Assembly: GCA_002773395.1 (NCBI GenBank)
Contig: PFBI01000006.1
Location: 156,657 to 220,656 of the forward strand
Reading direction: 5' to 3'
DNA length: 64,000 bases
Source of the DNA: Candidatus Kaiserbacteria bacterium CG10_big_fil_rev_8_21_14_0_10_47_16
GTDB lineage: Bacteria > Patescibacteriota > Minisyncoccia > Phycocordibacterales > UBA918
This document shows, piece by piece, positions 543-56,338 of this stretch. The stretch's first letter is position 1, and each line of letters opens with the position of its first letter. A program made the position numbers and the translations under genes. The notes beneath the pieces were generated by a model, which had not been told where the DNA came from, made no database searches, and was given only the letters and a program-made list of their open reading frames with translations.

Positions 543-1952
543 CTACAGCTCTCCATTCATCTTTTTACCAAAATCGAAGAGACGCGCGTCGCCCGCGTGC
601 GGTCCAATACATTGTACCCCAACCGGTAGGAGAACACCGTCACGATCTACTGTGCCTGCGGGGATAGAGAGCGCAGGAACACCAGTCAGGTTTGCGGGTA
701 CCGTGAAGATGTCTGCAAGGTACATCGAGAGTGGGTCACTCTTCTCGCCAATTTTAAATGCAGGTACCGGAGACGTTGGTGTGAGAAGAATATCGACATC
801 TTTAAATACCGCATCGAGTTCATCACGCATCATCTCACGCACTTGTTCTGCTTTGCCATAGTATGAATCGTAGTATCCCGCGGAGAGCACGTACGTACCG
901 AGCAAGATGCGACGCTTCACTTCTTCACCAAACCCTTGCGCACGCGTTAGCATGTAGTCATCGAGTAAATCAGCGCCGTCAACATGGAGGCCATACCGCA
1001 CGCCGTCAAATCGTCCGAGGTTCGAAGATACTTCTGCTGGCATCACGATGTAATACGCAGCAAGCCCTTTTTCCATAAGTGGAAGTGTTACATCAACAAT
1101 TTCATGACCAGCTTCTTTTAGTTTTGTGAGCGTTGATTCAAATACCGCAGAGACATCCGCATCAATACCTGTACCGAGAAAGTCTCGGGGTACTCCAATA
1201 CGGTACGTATCCTTAAGCGGTACAAGTGGGTATGTGTCAGCGTTAATTGTCGTTGCATCGAGAGGATCTTTCCCGGAAATGATGTTGTGAATTATTTCAG
1301 CATCAGCGACTGTGTTTGTGAGCGGACCTGCTTGATCGAGTGATGAGCCCATCGCGATAAGGCCCGAACGCGAGACACTTCCGTACGTCGGCTTATACCC
1401 CACAACACCGCAGAAGCTTGCCGGCTGTCGCACCGAACCACCTGTGTCAGTACCGAGCGCAGCGACCGCAGCACCCATCGCAACAGCAGCTGCCGATCCT
1501 CCTGATGATCCGCCGGGTACTCGAGATTCATCGACAGGATTTCGGGTAATACCAAACGCAGAACTCTCTGTTGAAGAACCCATGGCGAACTCATCCATAT
1601 TGGTAGCTCCTACAAAGAGTGCGCCTGCTTCCTTTAGTTTCGTAATAACAGTTGCATCGTATGTCGCGACATAATGTTCAAGCATCTTTGATGACGCAGT
1701 TGCTCGCTTCCCTTCAATTAAAATATTTGTCTTAATCGCAATCGGCATACCAAGGAGGGCTGGCGCATTTTCACCTTCTGTCTTGTAGCGCGCAGTCGCT
1801 TCTTCCGCAGACGCCATTGCATCGTCAAACACATCGACGAATGCGTTGATCGTTCCGTCACGTTCATCAATAACTTTTTGTATATCAGTAAGAGCGTCTA
1901 CTGGTGTGTAGCTCCCCTCAACAAATTTCTTTCGTAATTCTGAAATCGTCAT
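543..1952 (-). CDS. gatA: Glu-tRNA(Gln)/Asp-tRNA(Asn) amidotransferase subunit A (amidase signature family)
   Basis: 469 aa. Amidase-signature G/S-rich block GGSSGGSAAAVA...GTDTGGSVRQPA; its length and its position just downstream of gatC are typical. Confidence 0.9.
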   Translation of the reverse strand: MTISELRKKFVEGSYTPVDALTDIQKVIDERDGTINAFVDVFDDAMASAEEATARYKTEGENAPALLGMPIAIKTNILIEGKRATASSKMLEHYVATYDATVITKLKEAGALFVGATNMDEFAMGSSTESSAFGITRNPVDESRVPGGSSGGSAAAVAMGAAVAALGTDTGGSVRQPASFCGVVGYKPTYGSVSRSGLIAMGSSLDQAGPLTNTVADAEIIHNIISGKDPLDATTINADTYPLVPLKDTYRIGVPRDFLGTGIDADVSAVFESTLTKLKEAGHEIVDVTLPLMEKGLAAYYIVMPAEVSSNLGRFDGVRYGLHVDGADLLDDYMLTRAQGFGEEVKRRILLGTYVLSAGYYDSYYGKAEQVREMMRDELDAVFKDVDILLTPTSPVPAFKIGEKSDPLSMYLADIFTVPANLTGVPALSIPAGTVDRDGVLLPVGVQCIGPHAGDARLFDFGKKMNGEL

Positions 1953-1956
1953 ACTA

Positions 1957-2247
1957 TTATTTTCGCTCTCCCAAAATTTTCTTTACCTCTACATACTGCC
2001 CCTTCCGGACCGGCGCAGCTGCAAGGATACGTTCAGTGTATTCCCCCGGCTCATGATTTGGCACATCCTCTCGCATCACGTTATACAACGCACCAATTTC
2101 CTTTGGCTTTTCGGTTGCCGTGATGTCACCAATGGCACTCACGTATCCAAGAATATCAGTAATATTTTCTGCAAGATGGTCCTGCTCAGACTCCGTAAGT
2201 TTGATGCGCGCGAGGGTCGCGAGATGTGCGATATCTTCTCGTTTCAT
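1957..2247 (-). CDS. gatC: Glu-tRNA(Gln) amidotransferase subunit C
   Basis: 96 aa. Typical GatC N-terminus (MKREDIAHLATLARIKLTESE); 4-nt gap to gatA. Confidence 0.8.
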   Translation of the reverse strand: MKREDIAHLATLARIKLTESEQDHLAENITDILGYVSAIGDITATEKPKEIGALYNVMREDVPNHEPGEYTERILAAAPVRKGQYVEVKKILGERK

Positions 2248-2273
2248 ATGATGGCTATACTAGCATACACAGG

Positions 2274-5551
<3,278 letters not shown>

Positions 5552-5651
5552 TATGCGCCCATAGTGGCATAAATGGCCGAATAGGTAAATGTGTGGTATA
5601 TTCATCGCACTACACCAACCGCCCACACAGGGCGTTTTCCACTTTTGACCT

Positions 5652-7151
5652 ATGGCAAAGAAAGCAACCCCACAACCGCATATTACGAAGCGCCCACCCG
5701 TAGTAGTTATCATGGGACACATCGATCACGGCAAATCGACGCTCCTTGACTACATCCGTAAATCAAACGTCGTAGCAGGCGAAGCAGGCGGTATTACCCA
5801 ACACCTCTCAGCCTACGTTGTAGAGCACACCCCAAAGGAAGGTGAGCCTGAAACCATCACATTCCTCGATACCCCAGGACATGAAGCATTCCAAAAGATG
5901 CGTCTTCGTGGTGCCGACGTCGCCGATATCGCAATTCTCATTGTATCTGCAGAAGATGGCGTAAAGCCGCAAACACTCGAAGCCCTCGAGAGTATCAAGC
6001 AAGCAGAGATTCCATATGTCGTTGCAATAAATAAAATCGACCTCCCGAATGCAAACCTCGTCCGTACCCAATCATCACTCATCGAAAACGAAATCTATAT
6101 TGAAGGTATGGGTGGTGATATCCCATGGGTTGCCCTCTCTGCAAAGAGCGGTGAAGGCGTAGACGAGCTTCTCGATCTTGTGCTCCTCTCTGCAGAACTC
6201 GCAGAGCTGAAGGGCGATACCAATGCACCTGCAGAAGGTACCGTCATTGAAGGGCACCTCGATACCAAGCGCGGAACAACTGCAACACTCATCATTAAAA
6301 ACGGAACATTGAAGTCTGGTTCGTTTGCAGTTTCTGGAAAAACATTTGCACCAGTGCGCATCATGGAGAATTTCCTCGGAAAGACCATCAAAGAAGCAAG
6401 CCTCTCAGAACCAATCGGAATCGTAGGATGGAACGAAGTCCCTGAAGTGGGTGCATCTTTTTATACTGTAGGATCAAAGAAGGAAGCTGAAGTCGTTATT
6501 GCGGAAGCGTTGCTTAAAGAAACGATCCCTACACCAACACGATCAAGCCTTCCTACTATCCCACTCCTCATCAAGGCAGACGTGCTCGGTACACTCGACG
6601 CTATTGAACACGAACTCGATAAATTTACATCGGACCGAATCGCGGTACGTATTATTGATTCCGGTGTCGGTGACGTCACAGCGAGCGACGTACAAAACGT
6701 AAGCGCGACGAAGGATGCCATTATTGTTGGATTCAACGTAAAGATTGAACGCGCTGCGCAAGATCTTGCAGAACGACTCGGTGTTGAGATTGATACATTT
6801 GATATTATTTACGAACTTTCTGAGTGGCTCAACACCGCACTCAAGAATCGAACTCCAAAGCAAGAAGAGGAGCAAGTGACCGGACGCGCAAAAATCCTCA
6901 AGCACTTCAGTAGTCAAAAGAATGCTCACGTACTCGGTGGTCGTGCTGAAGAAGGAAGTCTCTCACGTGGACAACATGTACGTATACTCCGTCGTGATCT
7001 AGAAATTGGTCGAGGTGTCCTCAAGAACCTCCAGCAGCAGAAGTCTGACGTCCCTAAGGTGGAGACAGGAGAGTTTGGTATGCAGCTTGATTCACGAACT
7101 GAAGTTGCTGCCGGTGATTATATCGAGGCCTATACGACGGTTGTAACCTAA
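5652..7151 (+). CDS. infB: translation initiation factor IF-2 (short form lacking the N-terminal domains)
   Basis: G-domain motifs GHIDHGKST, DTPGH, NKID, followed by the beta-barrel and C-terminal domains. Only 499 aa. Confidence 0.85.
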   Translation: MAKKATPQPHITKRPPVVVIMGHIDHGKSTLLDYIRKSNVVAGEAGGITQHLSAYVVEHTPKEGEPETITFLDTPGHEAFQKMRLRGADVADIAILIVSAEDGVKPQTLEALESIKQAEIPYVVAINKIDLPNANLVRTQSSLIENEIYIEGMGGDIPWVALSAKSGEGVDELLDLVLLSAELAELKGDTNAPAEGTVIEGHLDTKRGTTATLIIKNGTLKSGSFAVSGKTFAPVRIMENFLGKTIKEASLSEPIGIVGWNEVPEVGASFYTVGSKKEAEVVIAEALLKETIPTPTRSSLPTIPLLIKADVLGTLDAIEHELDKFTSDRIAVRIIDSGVGDVTASDVQNVSATKDAIIVGFNVKIERAAQDLAERLGVEIDTFDIIYELSEWLNTALKNRTPKQEEEQVTGRAKILKHFSSQKNAHVLGGRAEEGSLSRGQHVRILRRDLEIGRGVLKNLQQQKSDVPKVETGEFGMQLDSRTEVAAGDYIEAYTTVVT

Positions 7152-7159
7152 ACATTTTC

Positions 7160-7504
7160 ATGCCCGATTTTGACCGACATGATCGTATCAATTCAATTCT
7201 CGCAACGCTTGCTGCTGAGTTTATTCGAGTTGAGGCAAACAGTAATCCTCTCATTACGGTAACCCACGTAACTATTTCTCCTGACTATCGCCGCACCACT
7301 ATTGGCTTCACGACCATTCCTGAAGATAAACAGGACGACGCCCTGATTTTTCTAAAGCGAAATGCATCTGAGTTCAGAAATTATATTAAAAAACACGCTC
7401 ACCTGAAGTTTATCCCCCACATTGAATTTGCGATTGATTACGGAGAACGCCACCGCCAACACATAGACGATGTGGTGAGAGATATTGAAGAGGGTAAAAA
7501 ATAA
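7160..7504 (+). CDS. rbfA: ribosome-binding factor A
   Basis: 114 aa immediately after infB (conserved infB-rbfA order); KH-like RbfA pattern (RINSILATLAAEF...VTHVTISPD). Confidence 0.8.
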   Translation: MPDFDRHDRINSILATLAAEFIRVEANSNPLITVTHVTISPDYRRTTIGFTTIPEDKQDDALIFLKRNASEFRNYIKKHAHLKFIPHIEFAIDYGERHRQHIDDVVRDIEEGKK

Positions 7505-7549
7505 TAATACAATCCTACGCCACAGGCGTAGGATTGTATTATTATTTTT
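7503..7549 (+). terminator. rho-independent terminator after rbfA
   Basis: Perfect long stem aatacaatcctacgcc/ggcgtaggattgtatt followed by a T-run. Confidence 0.7.
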
Positions 7550-7741
7550 GTGCGCGGGAGAGGACTTGATTCTTACAGAATCTGTTCAGGCTGCACCACA
7601 AGAGTACTTTGATTTTCTAAAACGCAAGCGTTAAGAAAATCTGGTCGTATGATATTTTTCATACCTCAAAATATCGACAACCTTTTCAAGTCCTCTCCAT
7701 ACAAAGAAACACCAGAGAGACTCTGGTGTTTCTTTACTTTG

Positions 7742-7823
7742 TGCGCGGGAGAGGACTTGAACCTCCACGGATTACTCCACCAGTTCCTAAGACTGGCGCG
7801 GCTACCAATTACGCCACCCGCGC
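7742..7823 (-). tRNA. tRNA-Leu (anticodon TAG), type II with long variable arm
   Basis: Manual cloverleaf on the reverse complement: acceptor GCGCGGG/CCCGCGC, anticodon loop CTTAGGA, long variable arm, T-loop TTCAAGT. Confidence 0.8.
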
Positions 7824-8009
7824 ATATTTGTGACCGGTGCAGAATATCATGATATGCGAGTATCGTCACGGGTTTTGTGTATGTCATCACGAGTCACTAA
7901 GTCGCTACGCTCATAAGTGCTGGCGATCCCGCCTCGTCTGTGGCAAAGCCGCATGACTCCGGCTCGGACAAGCTAAAATCCTGACGCAGGTCAGGATTTT
8001 AAACGCTTG

Positions 8010-8082
8010 TCCGCCCACTAGGACTCGAACCTAGGACCGTCTCGTTAAGAGCGAGCTGCTCTACCAACTGAGCTATGGGCGG
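8010..8082 (-). tRNA. tRNA-Lys (anticodon CTT)
   Basis: Reverse complement folds as CCGCCCA-TA-GCTC AGTTGGTA GAGC-A-GCTCG CTCTTAA CGAGA...CTAGG TTCGAGT CCTAG TGGGCGG A. Confidence 0.8.
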
Positions 8083-8221
8083 GACTGTACCATTGTGACT
8101 GCACTGTGCAGTCTGAGGAGTGCTCTTAATGTTAAGAGCGGTAGATGAGTCTAGTAGACTCATCTACCTCCACCACCTCCGCTATGGGCGGATGTAGGTC
8201 AGAGTGTACTAAATTACACCA

Positions 8222-8305
8222 CCGAAAACAAGCTATATAGTGTGTCTGGGGCGGGGATCGAACCCGCACGGTCTTGCGACCACGAAATTTTAAGTCTCGC
8301 GCGGC
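8222..8305 (-). tRNA. tRNA-Leu (anticodon TAA), type II
   Basis: Reverse complement: acceptor GTCTGGG/CCCAGAC, anticodon loop CTTAAAA, long variable arm TGGTCGCAAGACCGT, T-loop TTCGATC. Confidence 0.8.
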
Positions 8306-8397
8306 TACCAATTACGCCACCCAGACATGCCGAGCATCATATCATATTTCACTTGGTTATGACTCCAATGGATGATAAAGTAATCCTTGTCACAAAC

Positions 8398-8469
8398 GGC
8401 CAGGTGGCGAAGTGGTAACGCTTCGGTTTGCAAAACCGACATGCACGGGTTCGAACCCCGTCCTGGCCT
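8398..8469 (+). tRNA. tRNA-Cys (anticodon GCA)
   Basis: GGCCAGG-TG-GCG AAGTGGTAA CGC-T-TCGGT TTGCAAA ACCGA...ACGGG TTCGAAC CCCGT CCTGGCC T. CCA is not encoded. Confidence 0.8.
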
Positions 8470-8535
8470 CAAACGAAACGGAGTGAAGTGCAGAGGTCAG
8501 GACAAAAGCGACAACAGTCGCTTTTGTTGAGGTTC

Positions 8536-8616
8536 GAACGGCGGAGCGATGTTTTGGCTATTTCTAATGCCAAAACCGCGAGCCGCGTCCAGCATTCTTA
8601 TGAACGTAGTGAATTA
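8536..8616 (+). ncRNA. conserved ~80-nt hairpin element downstream of tRNA-Cys (copy 1 of 2)
   Basis: cggagcgatgttttggctatttctaatgccaaaaccgcgagccg...cttatgaacgtagtgaattag. It is near-identical to 56216-56300. The stem gttttggc/gccaaaac becomes gtttcggc/gccgaaac in copy 2 (compensatory change). Confidence 0.4.
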
Positions 8617-8682
8617 GAAAAAGCGGGACGAACCCCGTCCTGGCCTCAAACGAAAAACTGCCAGTATACTGGCAGTTTTTTG

Positions 8683-9729
8683 TTATCTTTTTATTGAAAG
8701 CCGATTCTTTTTGAATTGCTCTAATTTCTTCTTATGATTGTTCTTAATCAAACGCTTTTTTACAACCTGTGGAAGTGCATCAAACGTCATACATGTGTAT
8801 GAACAATACCCTTTCTTCTTTTCGATACATGCGGAACATCCGATAAACAAGACGTGGCACGCCTGATTTTTGCAGTGGTGATGCGTATCACACTTCTCCT
8901 TCTTGCAAAGATGGCACGTTGCAATAATGTCATTCCCTATCCGTTCCCCAAGTCGCTCATCGAAAACAAAGTTTTTCCCGAGAAACTTATTTGACAATCC
9001 TTCCCGCTGTACTTGGTGCGCGTAGTCGATGATTCCGCCGCGGAGGTGCCGTACGTTTTCAAATCCATTATGCTTCAGCCACGCACTTGCCTTCTCGCAT
9101 CGTATCCCGCCAGTACAATACAGTGCAATCTTTTTATTTTTATGAATCCTGAGTAACTCTGGAGCAATACTGAGTTCCTCACGGAAAGTGTCCACATCAG
9201 GAGTAATCGCATTCTCAAAATGTCCGATCTCGCTTTCGTACGCATTACGCATATCGACAACGACTGCATCAGGATCTTCAATATACGCATTCATCTCACG
9301 AGCGGTGAGATAGTCGCCCGTGTTTGTCACATCAAACGAACGGTCGTCGAGTCCATCAGCCACGATCTTATTTCGGACTTTGATAGTGAGTTTATAGAAC
9401 GAAATAATATCCGCCTCTTCCACTGCAATCTTATAGGGCATGCCGCGGAGTTCTGGGCGGGATTGTACAAACGCATCAAACTGATCCCAGTGCTCAGTTG
9501 GTACGTTCATTTGGGCGTTAATGCCTTCGTGCGCCACATAAATACGCCCCAAGCAGCCAAGTGCCTCGAACCGCTCATAAAGCTCGTCTCGAAACGCTAC
9601 AGGGTCTGCAATGTGTACATACCGGTAAAACGAGAGTGTGGTACGAGAAATAGCTTCACGAATGGCTCGCTCTTTTCGTTCTTTCCGAGAAAGAAACCGT
9701 TGTGGGTTATGATCTATTTTTATATCCAT
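8683..9729 (-). CDS. trhO: rhodanese-domain tRNA uridine(34) hydroxylase (YceA/UPF0176 family)
   Basis: Rhodanese active-site Cys in CTGGIRCEKASAWL plus a C-terminal Cys-rich tail. I place the start at MDIKIDHNP (ATG 9727-9729) rather than the track's 9777. Confidence 0.7.
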   Translation of the reverse strand: MDIKIDHNPQRFLSRKERKERAIREAISRTTLSFYRYVHIADPVAFRDELYERFEALGCLGRIYVAHEGINAQMNVPTEHWDQFDAFVQSRPELRGMPYKIAVEEADIISFYKLTIKVRNKIVADGLDDRSFDVTNTGDYLTAREMNAYIEDPDAVVVDMRNAYESEIGHFENAITPDVDTFREELSIAPELLRIHKNKKIALYCTGGIRCEKASAWLKHNGFENVRHLRGGIIDYAHQVQREGLSNKFLGKNFVFDERLGERIGNDIIATCHLCKKEKCDTHHHCKNQACHVLFIGCSACIEKKKGYCSYTCMTFDALPQVVKKRLIKNNHKKKLEQFKKNRLSIKR

Positions 9730-9812
9730 TCTTCTGTGACAGCCATCATACCGCACAGCGGTACTTGTGCAACACAAAACGGCCCTTGCGGGCCGTTTTG
9801 TGTTCTAGCTCT

Positions 9813-21750: not shown

Positions 21751-21767
21751 GGTACAGGAGAATACAA

Positions 21768-21797
21768 AAAGCCCCGCGCCTTTGGCGCGGGGCTTTT
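21768..21797. terminator. bidirectional terminator between rpsA and pth
   Basis: aaaagccccgcgcc-tttg-gcgcggggcttttt. Confidence 0.7.
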
Positions 21798-21804
21798 TGT
21801 ATTC

Positions 21805-30951: not shown

Positions 30952-31022
30952 GGAATAATCTCCTTCTTTTCCAATGTTTTTATAGCATATTTGGATAGTT
31001 TGTCAATATACGGTGCTTGGGG

Positions 31023-31367
31023 CCGGGCTCGGTCACGAATCACTAAGTATATTTTTGCTACGCTAAAATATACTTAGTGTTCTCGACCCGTGAAAAGCAA
31101 TTCAATATTGCTTTTCACCACGCCTCCCTCGTCCACAGGACGCGGCGCTCCGGCTTTCGAGCCGAGGCTCGGCGTCTAACTCTAGTTCACTACGTTCACA
31201 AGAGTTACCTGCCCGAGCATTTGAATTCTTGCATTAGAAATAGCAAAAATATACAAATGCTTTTCGAGCCCGACCGTAGGACGCGCCTGCGTCCTACTCC
31301 CCAAGCACACATACACAAAAACCGCCCTGAGGCGGTTTTTGTGTATGTGTGCTTGGGGCCGGGCTCG
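31023..31367. repeat. ~307-bp insert next to tRNA-Phe, flanked by an exact 19-nt direct repeat of the tRNA 3' end (gtgcttggggccgggctcg at 31023-31041 and 31349-31367)
   Basis: The direct repeat is visible in the sequence. The interior is hairpin-dense and includes a 28-bp perfect palindrome at 31299-31358 that incorporates the tRNA acceptor end. Confidence 0.5.
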
Positions 31368-31422
31368 AACCGGCGACCCCTTCCTCTTCAGGGAAATGCT
31401 CTACCAACTGAGCTACCCAAGC
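31350..31422 (-). tRNA. tRNA-Phe (anticodon GAA)
   Basis: Reverse complement: GCTTGGG-TA-GCTC AGTTGGTA GAGC-A-TTTCC CTGAAGA GGAAG-GGGTC-GCCGG TTCGAGC CCGGC CCCAAGC A. Confidence 0.8.
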
Positions 31423-31496
31423 ATTTGGTTTCCGAACGCTGCTTGGGCAAGCTGTGCTTACCCAAGCAAGTGAGTACTAGAATACCAAAAAAAGTC

Positions 31497-31793
31497 TTAT
31501 TCTCCAACTTCCCCACCAAAGAACTCCTGAAAGGCTCTCACCCCAGGAATCTCGTTAAGACCAACCTGAAACGTATCATACGAAGACCCGAACGCGTTGA
31601 AGTATGGTTCCAACACATAGAAGTAGAGTGCGAACGGAAGTCCAATGAGCACAACGTACCACAGTACACGGAGAATACCGTTAAAGATACTCCAGTGGTA
31701 GAGACGCTTGAGTATCTTATTGTTGTCTTCAAGGACTCGGTTGTTTCGCTCAATGAGTTGACGTAGGAGTGTATGGTCATCTTGTTCTGACAT
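31497..31793 (-). CDS. hypothetical membrane protein
   Basis: 98 aa, two TM helices. Confidence 0.35.
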   Translation of the reverse strand: MSEQDDHTLLRQLIERNNRVLEDNNKILKRLYHWSIFNGILRVLWYVVLIGLPFALYFYVLEPYFNAFGSSYDTFQVGLNEIPGVRAFQEFFGGEVGE

Positions 31794-42627: not shown

Positions 42628-43371
42628 ATGACAGAAGAAGGAAAAGGGCGCCTTGTCACAGGGCTTACCATACTTGGCTTTATAGCGGTGCTGGCACTGT
42701 GTGTTTTTGCTGCAGTTAAGCTCGTTCAACTTACTCCTAACATCTTCTCTTCCCTTGCGAACGTAACCGTCGGTACACAGGATGAATCCGACAGTACAGT
42801 AGCTACTACCGACACCACTAACGGTCCCTCTACCGTTACTATTATTCGGAATCCTGCGACAAGTACGCCCCCAACAGTAACTCCTGCAACAAGCACGCCG
42901 CAGCAACGACCGCCAGTTACACCACCGACGACACCGCAGCAACCTCCTGTGACGCCACAGCCACAACCCGAAACCTATACATACAATTACACATATCTTC
43001 CAACGTCAGATCCAAACGGGTACACCGACCTCGTCGCGCGTGTATACGCAACAGGGTACGTGCGTAATCACACCTTCGTTGAAAGTCCGTACGTTGATAC
43101 GAATGATACCGCCGCGGTGCAGATATCAGTGAAAAATACGGGTACCAAAACATCTGACCGTTTCGATGTTGATATCACACTTCCAACCGGCGATGACTTC
43201 TCGCTTGATAACCAGGCAGGTATTCAGCCAAATGAAGAAGTGATCATCACCTTCTCGTTTGATCCACGAAGCCTCTCAGGTACCCGATCATTTGATGGAC
43301 GAGTCTCTGTATCGAACGATGTAAATGTTTCAAGCAACTCATTCTACGGAACCGTACAATTTCGAAACTAA
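42628..43371 (+). CDS. hypothetical secreted protein with Pro/Thr-rich linker
   Basis: Signal anchor, then TSTPPTVTPATSTPQQRPPVTPPTTPQQPPVTPQPQP, then about 130-aa beta-rich domain. Confidence 0.45.
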   Translation: MTEEGKGRLVTGLTILGFIAVLALCVFAAVKLVQLTPNIFSSLANVTVGTQDESDSTVATTDTTNGPSTVTIIRNPATSTPPTVTPATSTPQQRPPVTPPTTPQQPPVTPQPQPETYTYNYTYLPTSDPNGYTDLVARVYATGYVRNHTFVESPYVDTNDTAAVQISVKNTGTKTSDRFDVDITLPTGDDFSLDNQAGIQPNEEVIITFSFDPRSLSGTRSFDGRVSVSNDVNVSSNSFYGTVQFRN

Positions 43372-43376
43372 ATAAG

Positions 43377-43412
43377 AAAAGCCCCGCGGCAGAGCCGCGG
43401 GGCTTTTCTTAT
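43377..43412. terminator. bidirectional terminator (convergent with gyrB)
   Basis: aaaagccccgcggc-agag-ccgcggggctttt. Confidence 0.7.
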
Positions 43413-43424
43413 TTAAAAACAGTT

Positions 43425-56099: not shown

Positions 56100-56170
56100 G
56101 CGGCCATGGTTAAGTGGTATAACGAGTCCTTGCCAAGGATTAGTCGGGAGTTCGATTCTCCCTGGCCGCA
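56100..56170 (+). tRNA. tRNA-Gly (anticodon GCC)
   Basis: GCGGCCA...AGTCC TTGCCAA GGATT...GGGAG TTCGATT CTCCC TGGCCGC A. Promoter TTGCAT-N17-TATAAT about 30 nt upstream. Confidence 0.8.
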
Positions 56171-56215
56171 CAAACGCGTTAAAAAGACCTCCCCTGCGGG
56201 AGGTCTTTAGCGTTT

Positions 56216-56300
56216 GTGAGCCGGAGCGATGTTTCGGCTATTCCTAATGCCGAAACCGCGAGGCCGGGGAGGAAGTGCTTATGAGCGTAAGCGAATTAGC
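56216..56300 (+). ncRNA. conserved ~80-nt hairpin element downstream of tRNA-Gly (copy 2 of 2)
   Basis: ccggagcgatgtttcggctattcctaatgccgaaaccgcgaggccg...cttatgagcgtaagcgaattag; preceded by a long terminator hairpin (56176-56214). Confidence 0.4.
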
Positions 56301-56338
56301 AACTTGACCCCAATATAGAAAACGTGTGACCCATCCTT

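Follow-up and report, generated by a model that had tools for sequence, protein, structure and literature searches.

A tRNA-Cys 3'-end duplication in a Kaiserbacteria genome and a candidate family of miniature insertion elements behind Patescibacteria tRNA genes

We analyzed a 64,000-nt stretch of the Candidatus Kaiserbacteria bacterium CG10_big_fil_rev_8_21_14_0_10_47_16 genome (contig PFBI01000006.1, positions 156,657 to 220,656; hereafter the window), in which the tRNA-Cys gene carries a 177-bp folded insert that duplicates the tRNA 3' end. We tentatively regard the 177 bp, with a confidence that stays a little below even, as one copy of a Patescibacteria family of miniature, non-coding and non-autonomous insertion elements that would target tRNA T-loops. 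The element lies within the tRNA gene, at the T-loop between positions 55 and 56, and contains a conserved two-hairpin core with, on its 5' side, an arm antisense to the tRNA 3' end. Because the element carries its own tRNA 3' end and trailer, the tRNA stays intact and a direct repeat arises. A sequence-only reading of this locus had proposed an integration footprint, left either by a decayed phage or integrative and conjugative element (ICE) or by a miniature integrative element. The family is apparently undescribed and widespread, consisting of small folded elements behind tRNA genes and some protein genes of Patescibacteria; no description of it was found in the literature searched by sequence string and topic.

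The tRNA-Cys insert and its fold

The 27-mer CGAACCCCGTCCTGGCCTCAAACGAAA occurs exactly twice in the window, both times on the + strand, and had no match in shuffles of the window. It consists of 18 nt of tRNA-Cys (C56 to U73) and 9 nt of trailer past the discriminator base; T54, T55 and C56 are 8450, 8451 and 8452. The same pair was also recovered as repeat family D19 in a repeat search of the window. The 3'-end duplication noticed in the sequence-only reading is therefore real, and its copies, placed there at 8450-8476 and 8631-8657, are each shifted by 2 nt (Table 1). The period from repeat to repeat corresponds to an element copy of 177 bp. Copy 2 is the counterpart of the single copy at an empty site in a relative, L129, one of the 8-kb stretches used as comparison loci. 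The order between the repeats is a 14-nt spacer, GAGGTCAGGAC, a terminator-like hairpin, GAGGTTCG and two conserved hairpins. A terminator hairpin and a conserved motif had already been described between the copies, and they correspond to hairpin P1a and to CTTATGAACGTAGTGAATTAG (8597-8617); the second terminator described there is AAAAACTGCCAGTATACTGGCAGTTTTTT.

Both parts of the antisense arm match the repeated sequence. GAGGTCAGGAC is complementary to GTCCTGGCCTC in either repeat copy, with one G-T wobble, and GAGGTTCG is complementary to CGAACCCC, the start of the repeat; together they complement the repeated tRNA 3' end. In the predicted single-strand fold, the arm pairs with repeat copy 2 and encloses hairpins P2 and P3 (-92.6 kcal/mol, z = -7.1). 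The base of P2 has 3 bp (GGC/GCC) followed by a bulged G with tandem G.A/A.G pairs (GGA/GA), and its upper stem, GCG..GTTTTGGC / GCCAAAAC..CGC, carries the loop TATTTCTAAT. Across the family, CGGAG...CGAG is conserved in P2 and the upper stem is variable. P3 consists of an outer stem (GTCC/GGAC), a U.U mismatch, tandem G.A pairs and a GUA triloop, and its last C, in the outermost pair, doubles as C56 of repeat copy 2. The conserved motif lies within P3; its consensus, CUUAUGARCGUAGYGAAUUAG, includes a covarying 2-bp stem (GC to AU). The ~150-bp interior contained no protein-coding remnant, the sequence being wholly folded and non-coding. The tRNA-Phe element of the window has the same type of fold.

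Several identities for parts of this fold were rejected. A hammerhead formed by CUUAUGAG...CGAA would have U at the essential G5 and had no model match. Classical kink-turns do not fit, since the bulge in P2 is 1 nt rather than 3 and P3 has none; these are G.A motifs and not canonical kink-turns. A pseudoknot between the P2 loop (CUAAU) and AUUAG of P3 showed no covariation, and the tip of P2 is replaceable.

Table 1. Coordinates of the tRNA-Cys element and of other features in the window
Feature	Position	Strand	Basis or remark
tRNA-Cys(GCA), intact	8398-8470	+	ARAGORN; Infernal 8398-8469; Rfam tRNA model 67.1 bits
Direct repeat copy 1	8452-8478	+	exact 27-mer; C56 to U73 of tRNA-Cys and trailer
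Antisense arm, outer part (P1 5' strand), GAGGTCAGGAC	8493-8503	+	minimum-free-energy fold z = -7.1; duplex -26.1 kcal/mol
Hairpin P1a, AAAAGCGAC-AACA-GTCGCTTTT	8504-8525	+	terminator-like; interrupts antisense arm; equivalents at other loci
Antisense arm, inner part, GAGGTTCG	8529-8536	+	complementary to CGAACCCC, start of repeat
Two-hairpin module, ~100 nt	8530-8630	+	covariance model R1, 91.8 bits, E = 9e-24
Hairpin P2	8540-8584	+	RNAalifold; covariation in helices 1-3
Hairpin P3	8587-8629	+	helices 4-6 of covariation test
Direct repeat copy 2	8629-8655	+	exact 27-mer; runs on into downstream chromosome
Bidirectional terminator, AAAAACTGCCAGTATACTGGCAGTTTTTT	8653-8681	.	common to tRNA-Cys locus and convergent TrhO-like gene
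TrhO-like gene, convergent	8683-9777	-	Pfam
Family member behind tRNA-Gly (56100-56171)	56210-56312	+	91.9 bits; without 3'-end copy
Family member behind tRNA-Lys(ctt) (8009-8082, -)	7884-7973	-	58.6 bits; without 3'-end copy
Element behind tRNA-Phe (31349-31422, -)	31013-31348	-	R1, repeat search, fold z = -15
Degenerate element behind tRNA-Leu(tag) (7741-7823, -)	7547-7740	-	weak module and repeat

Copies in the window and across genomes

A motif pattern scan over one genome per species gave more than 119 loci, mostly from Patescibacteria (Paceibacteria, Saccharibacteria, Kaiserbacteria and others), with a minority from Proteobacteria, where the flanks differ, and a few coding false positives. 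The matches at L082, L103, L118 and L120 were discarded as chance matches in uvrB-like coding sequence (...MTYERNDLDF...), and a scan of viral contigs gave two matches only, one of them clearly a coding chance match. The covariance model R1, built from 24 copies, found 119 modules in 83 sources, again mostly Patescibacteria. Among 117 modules, 59 begin no more than 100 nt from the 3' end of a tRNA on the same strand and 19 more within 600 nt; these tRNA-linked modules (78/117, up to 600 nt downstream) span 16 amino-acid identities. The module was present at 71 of the 130 tRNAs of the R1-searched loci, a fraction that is biased upward because the loci were selected for bearing the motif. The inserts form a uniform structured family of 150-350 bp. 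Rfam 15 covers, among others, hammerhead and other ribozymes, YrlA, tmRNA and group I and II introns; its search of the window and 19 other loci at the gathering score returned tRNAs only, and a search of 7400-8750 at E up to 10 returned tRNAs and noise, with no relevant match.

When R1 was run over the window with filters off, matches were obtained behind five of the six tRNAs, and nothing else had E < 0.1. The module behind tRNA-Gly is preceded by a trailer/terminator/anti-trailer hairpin. The tRNA-Phe element has one module at 31170-31271 (-, 55.0 bits) and a degenerate second one at 31036-31134 (-, 18.4 bits), and a 28-bp hairpin takes in the tRNA end; its 3'-end duplication is 19 nt long (31349-31367 and 31013-31031). 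Behind tRNA-Leu(tag), a weak module at 7642-7737 (-, 12.8 bits, E = 0.12) is accompanied by a 23-nt duplication (7738-7760 and 7547-7569). No 3'-end duplication was seen at the tRNA-Gly and tRNA-Lys of the window. The tRNA-Cys pattern had been said to recur at three other loci: the module in fact stands behind four other tRNAs, and the duplication at only two of them (Phe and Leu(tag)).

Other features were observed at or near these copies. A ~56-nt repeat starting with CACCACAAGAGTA lies inside the Leu(tag) element (7594-7650, +) and was also found at L069, L092 and L113, in either orientation relative to the modules; at L113 it splits hairpin P3 between AATTAG and AAAAAGCGGGAC. At 8100-8191 (-), between tRNA-Leu(taa) and the true tRNA-Lys, the 5' part of tRNA-Lys(ctt) recurs in degenerate form, with CCGCCCATAGC and the anticodon-arm-like GCTCTTAACATTAAGAGC; here the tRNA 5' end is duplicated too. 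A 229-aa open frame at 31077-31766 (+) runs antisense to tRNA-Phe and its element; it is almost certainly no gene, and automatic annotation could call it. The terminators at 7502-7544, 21761-21803 and 43371-43413 are perfect palindromes of ~20 bp with A/T-rich outer stems, and terminators of this kind complicate arguments from hairpin extension.

A direct repeat of the tRNA 3' end from the T-loop onward is the classic attL/attR footprint, and the insert could be what is left of the ends of an eroded prophage or integrative element at a tRNA-Cys attachment site. An unrelated serine-recombinase island does use a module-bearing tRNA, the tRNA-Met of L054. However, inserts of the same size and fold stand behind most tRNAs here and in many other genomes, no coding remnants were found, and separate erosion events would not all end in one and the same structured module. 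This family-wide conservation effectively refutes erosion, to which we give hardly any credence, and the decayed phage or ICE option of the sequence-only reading falls with it. The L054 island (688-7080, 6.1 kb) encodes a large serine recombinase (Resolvase, Recombinase and Zn_ribbon_recom) and is placed between tRNA-Met and the module and 3'-end copy of that tRNA, with a third, diverged tRNA-end remnant at its right edge. It was rejected as an autonomous parent of the family because it sits between the tRNA and an already complete element, and it appears to be an element of its own that uses this tRNA-Met.

In the model-fitted alignment, standard pairs filled 93.3% of cells, compared with 67.9% in shuffles and 34-46% when the partner was slid. 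Both sides had changed in 24 of 25 pairs, and the covariation score, from the same model-fitted alignment, was 0.50 compared with 0.15. G-U exceeded A-C by 72 to 29 with one mis-annotated pair excluded (76 to 75 with that pair). The G-U excess and the conserved G.A pairs indicate that the fold belongs to the tRNA-sense strand, where tandem G.A pairs and GNA-type mini-hairpins abound in its core. The pairing of the antisense arm with the repeat and the preference of the fold for the sense strand would look alike, in sequence, for DNA and for RNA.

The serious rival to an insertion element, if on balance an unlikely one, is a non-coding RNA with a function linked to tRNA genes, the module being carried on read-through transcripts of the tRNA or of another gene upstream. 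The arm could pair with the tRNA-like segment, or with the real upstream 3' end and trailer, to form a closing helix. This helix could serve in processing (by RNase III or an RNase P/Z-like activity), as a G.A platform for protein or as a guide that brings some activity to the upstream RNA's 3' end, and the duplication would be no more than its evolutionary origin. The module always lies on the sense strand downstream of a gene, its folds are very stable (z = -7 to -15), its covariation is strong and its RNA-motif features (tandem G.A, U.U) are conserved, all of which argue for an RNA. The P2 hairpins of similar tRNA-Val copies at L004 and L039 differ by pair-keeping changes, and prevalence in tiny genomes is high (five of six tRNAs in the window, 71 of 130 in the motif-selected and hence biased loci). 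In DNA hairpins, however, pair-keeping changes can arise without selection through template switching in near-palindromes. There was also no match to an Rfam family. The P1a branch stands opposite tRNA positions 62-65 rather than at the acceptor/T-stem junction (7/49, 65/66), and there is no T-loop; the fold is thus not a tRNA mimic.

Boundary, antisense arm and history of the copies

Exact copies, 10 nt or longer, of the upstream tRNA follow 38 of the 80 modules that have one. Counted back from the tRNA 3' end, the copy begins at 19 nt in 19 of these 38 loci and at 20 nt in 6, that is, at C56 or T55 in the T-loop. Copy lengths range from 10 to >34 nt, and at L014, L018 and L095 the copy reaches at least 14 nt beyond the tRNA end, into the trailer and part of the terminator. 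Because the length is variable and the T-loop boundary fixed, these are repeats with a variable homology tract, and a fixed-length target-site duplication was rejected. In the layout that we call type A, the tRNA, trailer and terminator are followed by the antisense arm, P2, P3 and the tRNA 3' copy, and the arm is often split by a conserved hairpin, RGCAAACUGCUUUGCY. In type B, which includes tRNA-Gly and tRNA-Lys of the window, the downstream tRNA copy is missing. Whichever the type, the module's 5' arm complements the 8-19 nt before the upstream terminator. The mean best arm duplex was -18.4 kcal/mol with the module's own flanks and -12.7 +/- 0.23 kcal/mol with arms swapped between modules.

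The fixed C56 boundary, the variable homology tract and the intact tRNA are best explained by insertion at the DNA level, as are the empty site and the duplications of target 3' ends across phyla. A function as RNA, by contrast, gives no reason for an exact copy of the neighbouring tRNA from C56. The proposed footprint of integration is supported in part, by its T-loop edge (25 of 38 copies) and by the empty site, and the mechanism behind it is putative. In the mechanism that we propose, a single strand would fold its antisense arm onto the tRNA-like segment and would present the attachment sequence as a duplex beside two hairpins, in the manner of integron attC or CTX-phage attP. The enzyme inserting the element at the T-loop would be a recombinase or nuclease whose gene lies elsewhere in the genome, and recombination between the repeat copies would remove the element cleanly. 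Copies that lack the repeat, stand in tandem or follow protein genes are family variants placed just 3' of a terminator hairpin.

Other kinds of insertion were considered and rejected. A tandem-duplicated tRNA with an insert in its T-loop does not fit, since the 5' arm complements the 3' end and is no copy of a tRNA 5' half (Phe, Val). A classical MITE (miniature inverted-repeat transposable element) of DDE-transposase origin was rejected because the apparent inverted repeat is local tRNA sequence and the repeat length varies. A group I intron is contradicted by the intact tRNA, by the insert position (55/56) and by the lack of an Intron_gpI match; described group I introns of Patescibacteria tRNAs lie in the anticodon loop, at position 35/36 (PMC13011429).

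The arm and two-hairpin module might instead be a guide-and-scaffold nucleic acid that directs insertion, or an RNA-level activity (cleavage, protection or tagging), to the upstream 3' end; we regard this as rather improbable. The sequence of the arm would then correspond, perhaps through templating, to the 3'-terminal 8-19 nt of the tRNA or gene upstream. A guide RNA of the TnpB/IscB type (scaffold and flanking guide) was rejected, since the intact upstream tRNA would be a self-target.

About 30% of the modules lack an adjoining detected tRNA. Most of the 16 such modules inspected stand behind protein genes, with ends resembling, for example, S9, DnaJ, GreA and FtsZ (C-terminal residues, judged by eye), and in the clear cases (such as L019, L074, L084 and L110) the arm matches the end of the open reading frame (ORF), stop codon included. 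Modules also form tandem arrays, for example at L049. A terminator-like hairpin occurs no more than 120 nt upstream of 53 of 101 modules, compared with 5.4% of background windows, which argues against routine co-transcription with the upstream gene. No conserved promoter was seen at the modules, and this, like the terminators, counts against a functional RNA. The motif hairpin is also part of intergenic mosaic repeats in Alphaproteobacteria; in Proteobacteria such repeats lie between convergent genes. At the alphaproteobacterial L010 (3753-3946), an insert with the motif hairpin is bracketed by a 27-nt repeat whose start lies in the T-loop of tRNA-Gln; at L032 (6497-6801), also alphaproteobacterial, the bracketing repeat is 62 nt of the 3' end of a kinase-like ORF, and its copies differ at synonymous sites.

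A weaker rival than the functional RNA, and in our judgment an improbable one, is a passive palindromic repeat of the REP/BIME type (repetitive extragenic palindrome/bacterial interspersed mosaic element), spread or rearranged by slippage, template switching and gene conversion. The duplicated tRNA 3' end and the inverted copy would then be by-products of hairpin-driven template switching. The extragenic position after terminators, the long perfect palindromes that this genome has as terminators, the mosaic repeats of Proteobacteria and the tandem arrays are consistent with it, as are the homogenisation of module parts within a genome and the motif hairpin GCGNAGC, which we take to be a very stable GNA mini-hairpin type. 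It is opposed by the sharp and recurrent C56 left boundary across many different tRNAs, by a two-hairpin architecture and junction nucleotides conserved across Patescibacteria classes, and by the strong association with tRNA genes.

On contig VMGX01000001, parts of tRNA-Ala were observed at two places. At L098 (~950-1250), the 5' part of tRNA-Ala(TGC), up to the T-loop, is joined straight to a module, and ~3.8 kb away, at L046 (~5050-5200), another module of this type stands ahead of a tRNA-Ala 3' end, intact in appearance, and a terminator. Either the tRNA gene has been split or rearranged, or the insertion is composite.

The closest relative recovered, L129, has a TrhO-like neighbour that is 81% identical and the same gene order and upstream spacer. 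Its tRNA-Cys differs by one base and is directly followed by a terminator, 30 nt from the TrhO stop codon; R1 found no module at this tRNA, which has a single 3' end. An insert-free site with conserved flanks, which the sequence-only reading had suggested looking for among relatives, was thus present. At L127 (neighbour 75% identical), tRNA-Cys has a different 3' end, and its element repeats 20 nt of that end perfectly and bears an antisense arm that fits it; no element was found at Lys or Leu(tag) of L127. Elements are present at Cys, Lys and Leu(tag) of L099, two each at Lys and Leu(tag) of L130, and none at L131. Presence among these relatives is patchy, and the absence of the module from some close relatives is a point against a functional RNA.

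These loci showed further differences. The tRNA-Leu(taa) of L129 bears a reduced element (3294-3445) with a 20-nt repeat, TCGAGTCCCACTCTCGGCAC, which the window lacks, and the 3' part of this element, CCTGAACAGATTCTGTAAGAA, matches the Leu(tag) element of the window. Relative to the TrhO-like and RbfA genes on its flanks, the block of four tRNAs (Leu-tag, Lys, Leu-taa, Cys) has opposite orientations in the window (7741-8470) and L127 (4089-4597). At L099 (5893-6418 and 6840-6875), between tRNA-Leu(taa) and tRNA-Lys, identical hairpins, AATCATACGATATATCGTATGATTT, flank a 128-aa ORF that is TrpR-like as judged by eye, and in the Leu(tag) module of L099 the tip of P3 is replaced by a hairpin related to AATCATACGATATATCGTATGATTT.

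Several observations weigh against insertion elements as the explanation. Mean module identity was 60% within a locus and 59% between loci, and modules at the same tRNA in different genomes were up to 97% (His), 91% and 87% (Val) and 82% (Asp) identical; the Lys modules of the window and L099 were 75% identical. Divergence within genomes together with similarity at the same tRNA between genomes suggests that most copies are old and vertically inherited and not the product of recent transposition, with occasional duplication or conversion: a few within-locus pairs were 84-92% identical, the Cys and Gly copies of the window share 93% of P2, and the Cys and Leu(tag) modules of L099 were 85% identical. 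In the window and L127, the repeats and arms at tRNA-Cys each track their own tRNA 3' end, which needs gene conversion, selection or repeated insertion. An element with a fixed tRNA 3' end and its complement would be hard to retarget, yet at least 16 tRNA identities are occupied, and retention in tiny genomes speaks against a purely selfish form. The empty site of L129 could equally have come from deletion between the repeats. The window is ordinary chromosome, encoding IF-2, RbfA, LigA, GatA, gyrase A and B, sigma-70, primase, ATP synthase, ClpB, LeuRS and others; its ~50 ORFs include no recombinase, transposase or reverse transcriptase. No mobilising enzyme was linked to the modules, and no free or circular form of the element was seen.

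The old and diverged copies, the retention in tiny genomes, the tracking of the own tRNA and the difficulty of retargeting make a functional RNA a serious rival, and the conservation of same-tRNA copies between genomes, with divergence within a genome, also favours it. A miniature integrative element, one of the options of the sequence-only reading, is nevertheless the best reading of the locus; its mechanism is putative, and an RNA function is viable beside it.

Significance and comparison with known systems

Patescibacteria genomes are among the smallest and most gene-dense of bacterial genomes. Despite this, about half of the tRNAs of the sampled loci, and five of six in the window, carry a folded appendix that is absent from Rfam. 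As mobile DNA, the appendix would be an integrative element of unusually small size (~180 nt) that spares its target gene through a replacement 3' end, and its attachment site may act as a folded single strand, extending the attC/CTX principle to tRNA genes. If it is RNA, a phylum whose RNA biology is almost unexplored would have a new and large family of structured RNAs linked to tRNAs. A guide-and-scaffold function would make it a new nucleic-acid-guided element or ribonucleoprotein specific to ultra-small bacteria. Either way, the family matters for annotating tRNA genes, accounts for contig breaks and for rearrangements in tRNA clusters, and provides a clean marker for strain-level variation.

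The closest parallels to DNA-level insertion are the tRNA-integrating islands and prophages that use tyrosine integrases, such as P4-like elements, whose crossover is in the T-loop, and the CIMEs (cis-mobilizable elements) that derive from them and lack an integrase. These likewise have a direct repeat from the T-loop to the 3' end, an element-borne copy that restores the tRNA, and relatives with empty sites. In contrast to the islands, the inserts described here are only 150-350 bp long, carry no integrase and no cargo, have a folded core and an antisense arm, and occupy most tRNAs of a genome rather than a few. Integron attC and the CTX-phage attP(+), the latter used by XerCD, form strand-specific imperfect hairpins with conserved non-Watson-Crick features, as the element is predicted to do. 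The order at tRNA-Cys also appears CTX attP-like, with an inverted attachment copy, a ~100-nt spacer and a sense copy beside the chromosomal junction. Unlike attC and CTX, the element has no RYYYAAC/GTTRRRY boxes, no XerC/D binding arms and no dif-like site, its single-strand form is a prediction, and its stem sequences are local tRNA sequence that differs at every locus.

REP/BIME sequences (mobilized by RAYT transposases) and PATEs (palindrome-associated transposable elements) and MITEs derived from IS200/IS605 are also small, multi-copy, extragenic and strand-specific hairpins behind genes and terminators, with two similar hairpins in direct orientation and, as in the motif described here, GTAG. 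In our family, however, GTAG is in the P3 loop rather than 5' of the palindrome, and no Y1 transposase was found in the window. IS200/IS605 elements make no target duplication, whereas copies of 10 to >34 nt follow 38 of 80 modules here. Group IIC introns, and other elements inserting directly 3' of such hairpins, are likewise placed right after a terminator hairpin and have a segment complementary to the target, but the element is far too small for a ribozyme intron and had no group II domains and no Rfam match. Finally, YrlA Y RNA, the tRNA-like domain of tmRNA and processing signals that resemble tRNAs share with the element an end helix whose 3' strand is the acceptor and T-stem strand; the element differs from these in having no Rfam match and no T-loop or D-loop mimic, the module standing in the place of the T-loop.

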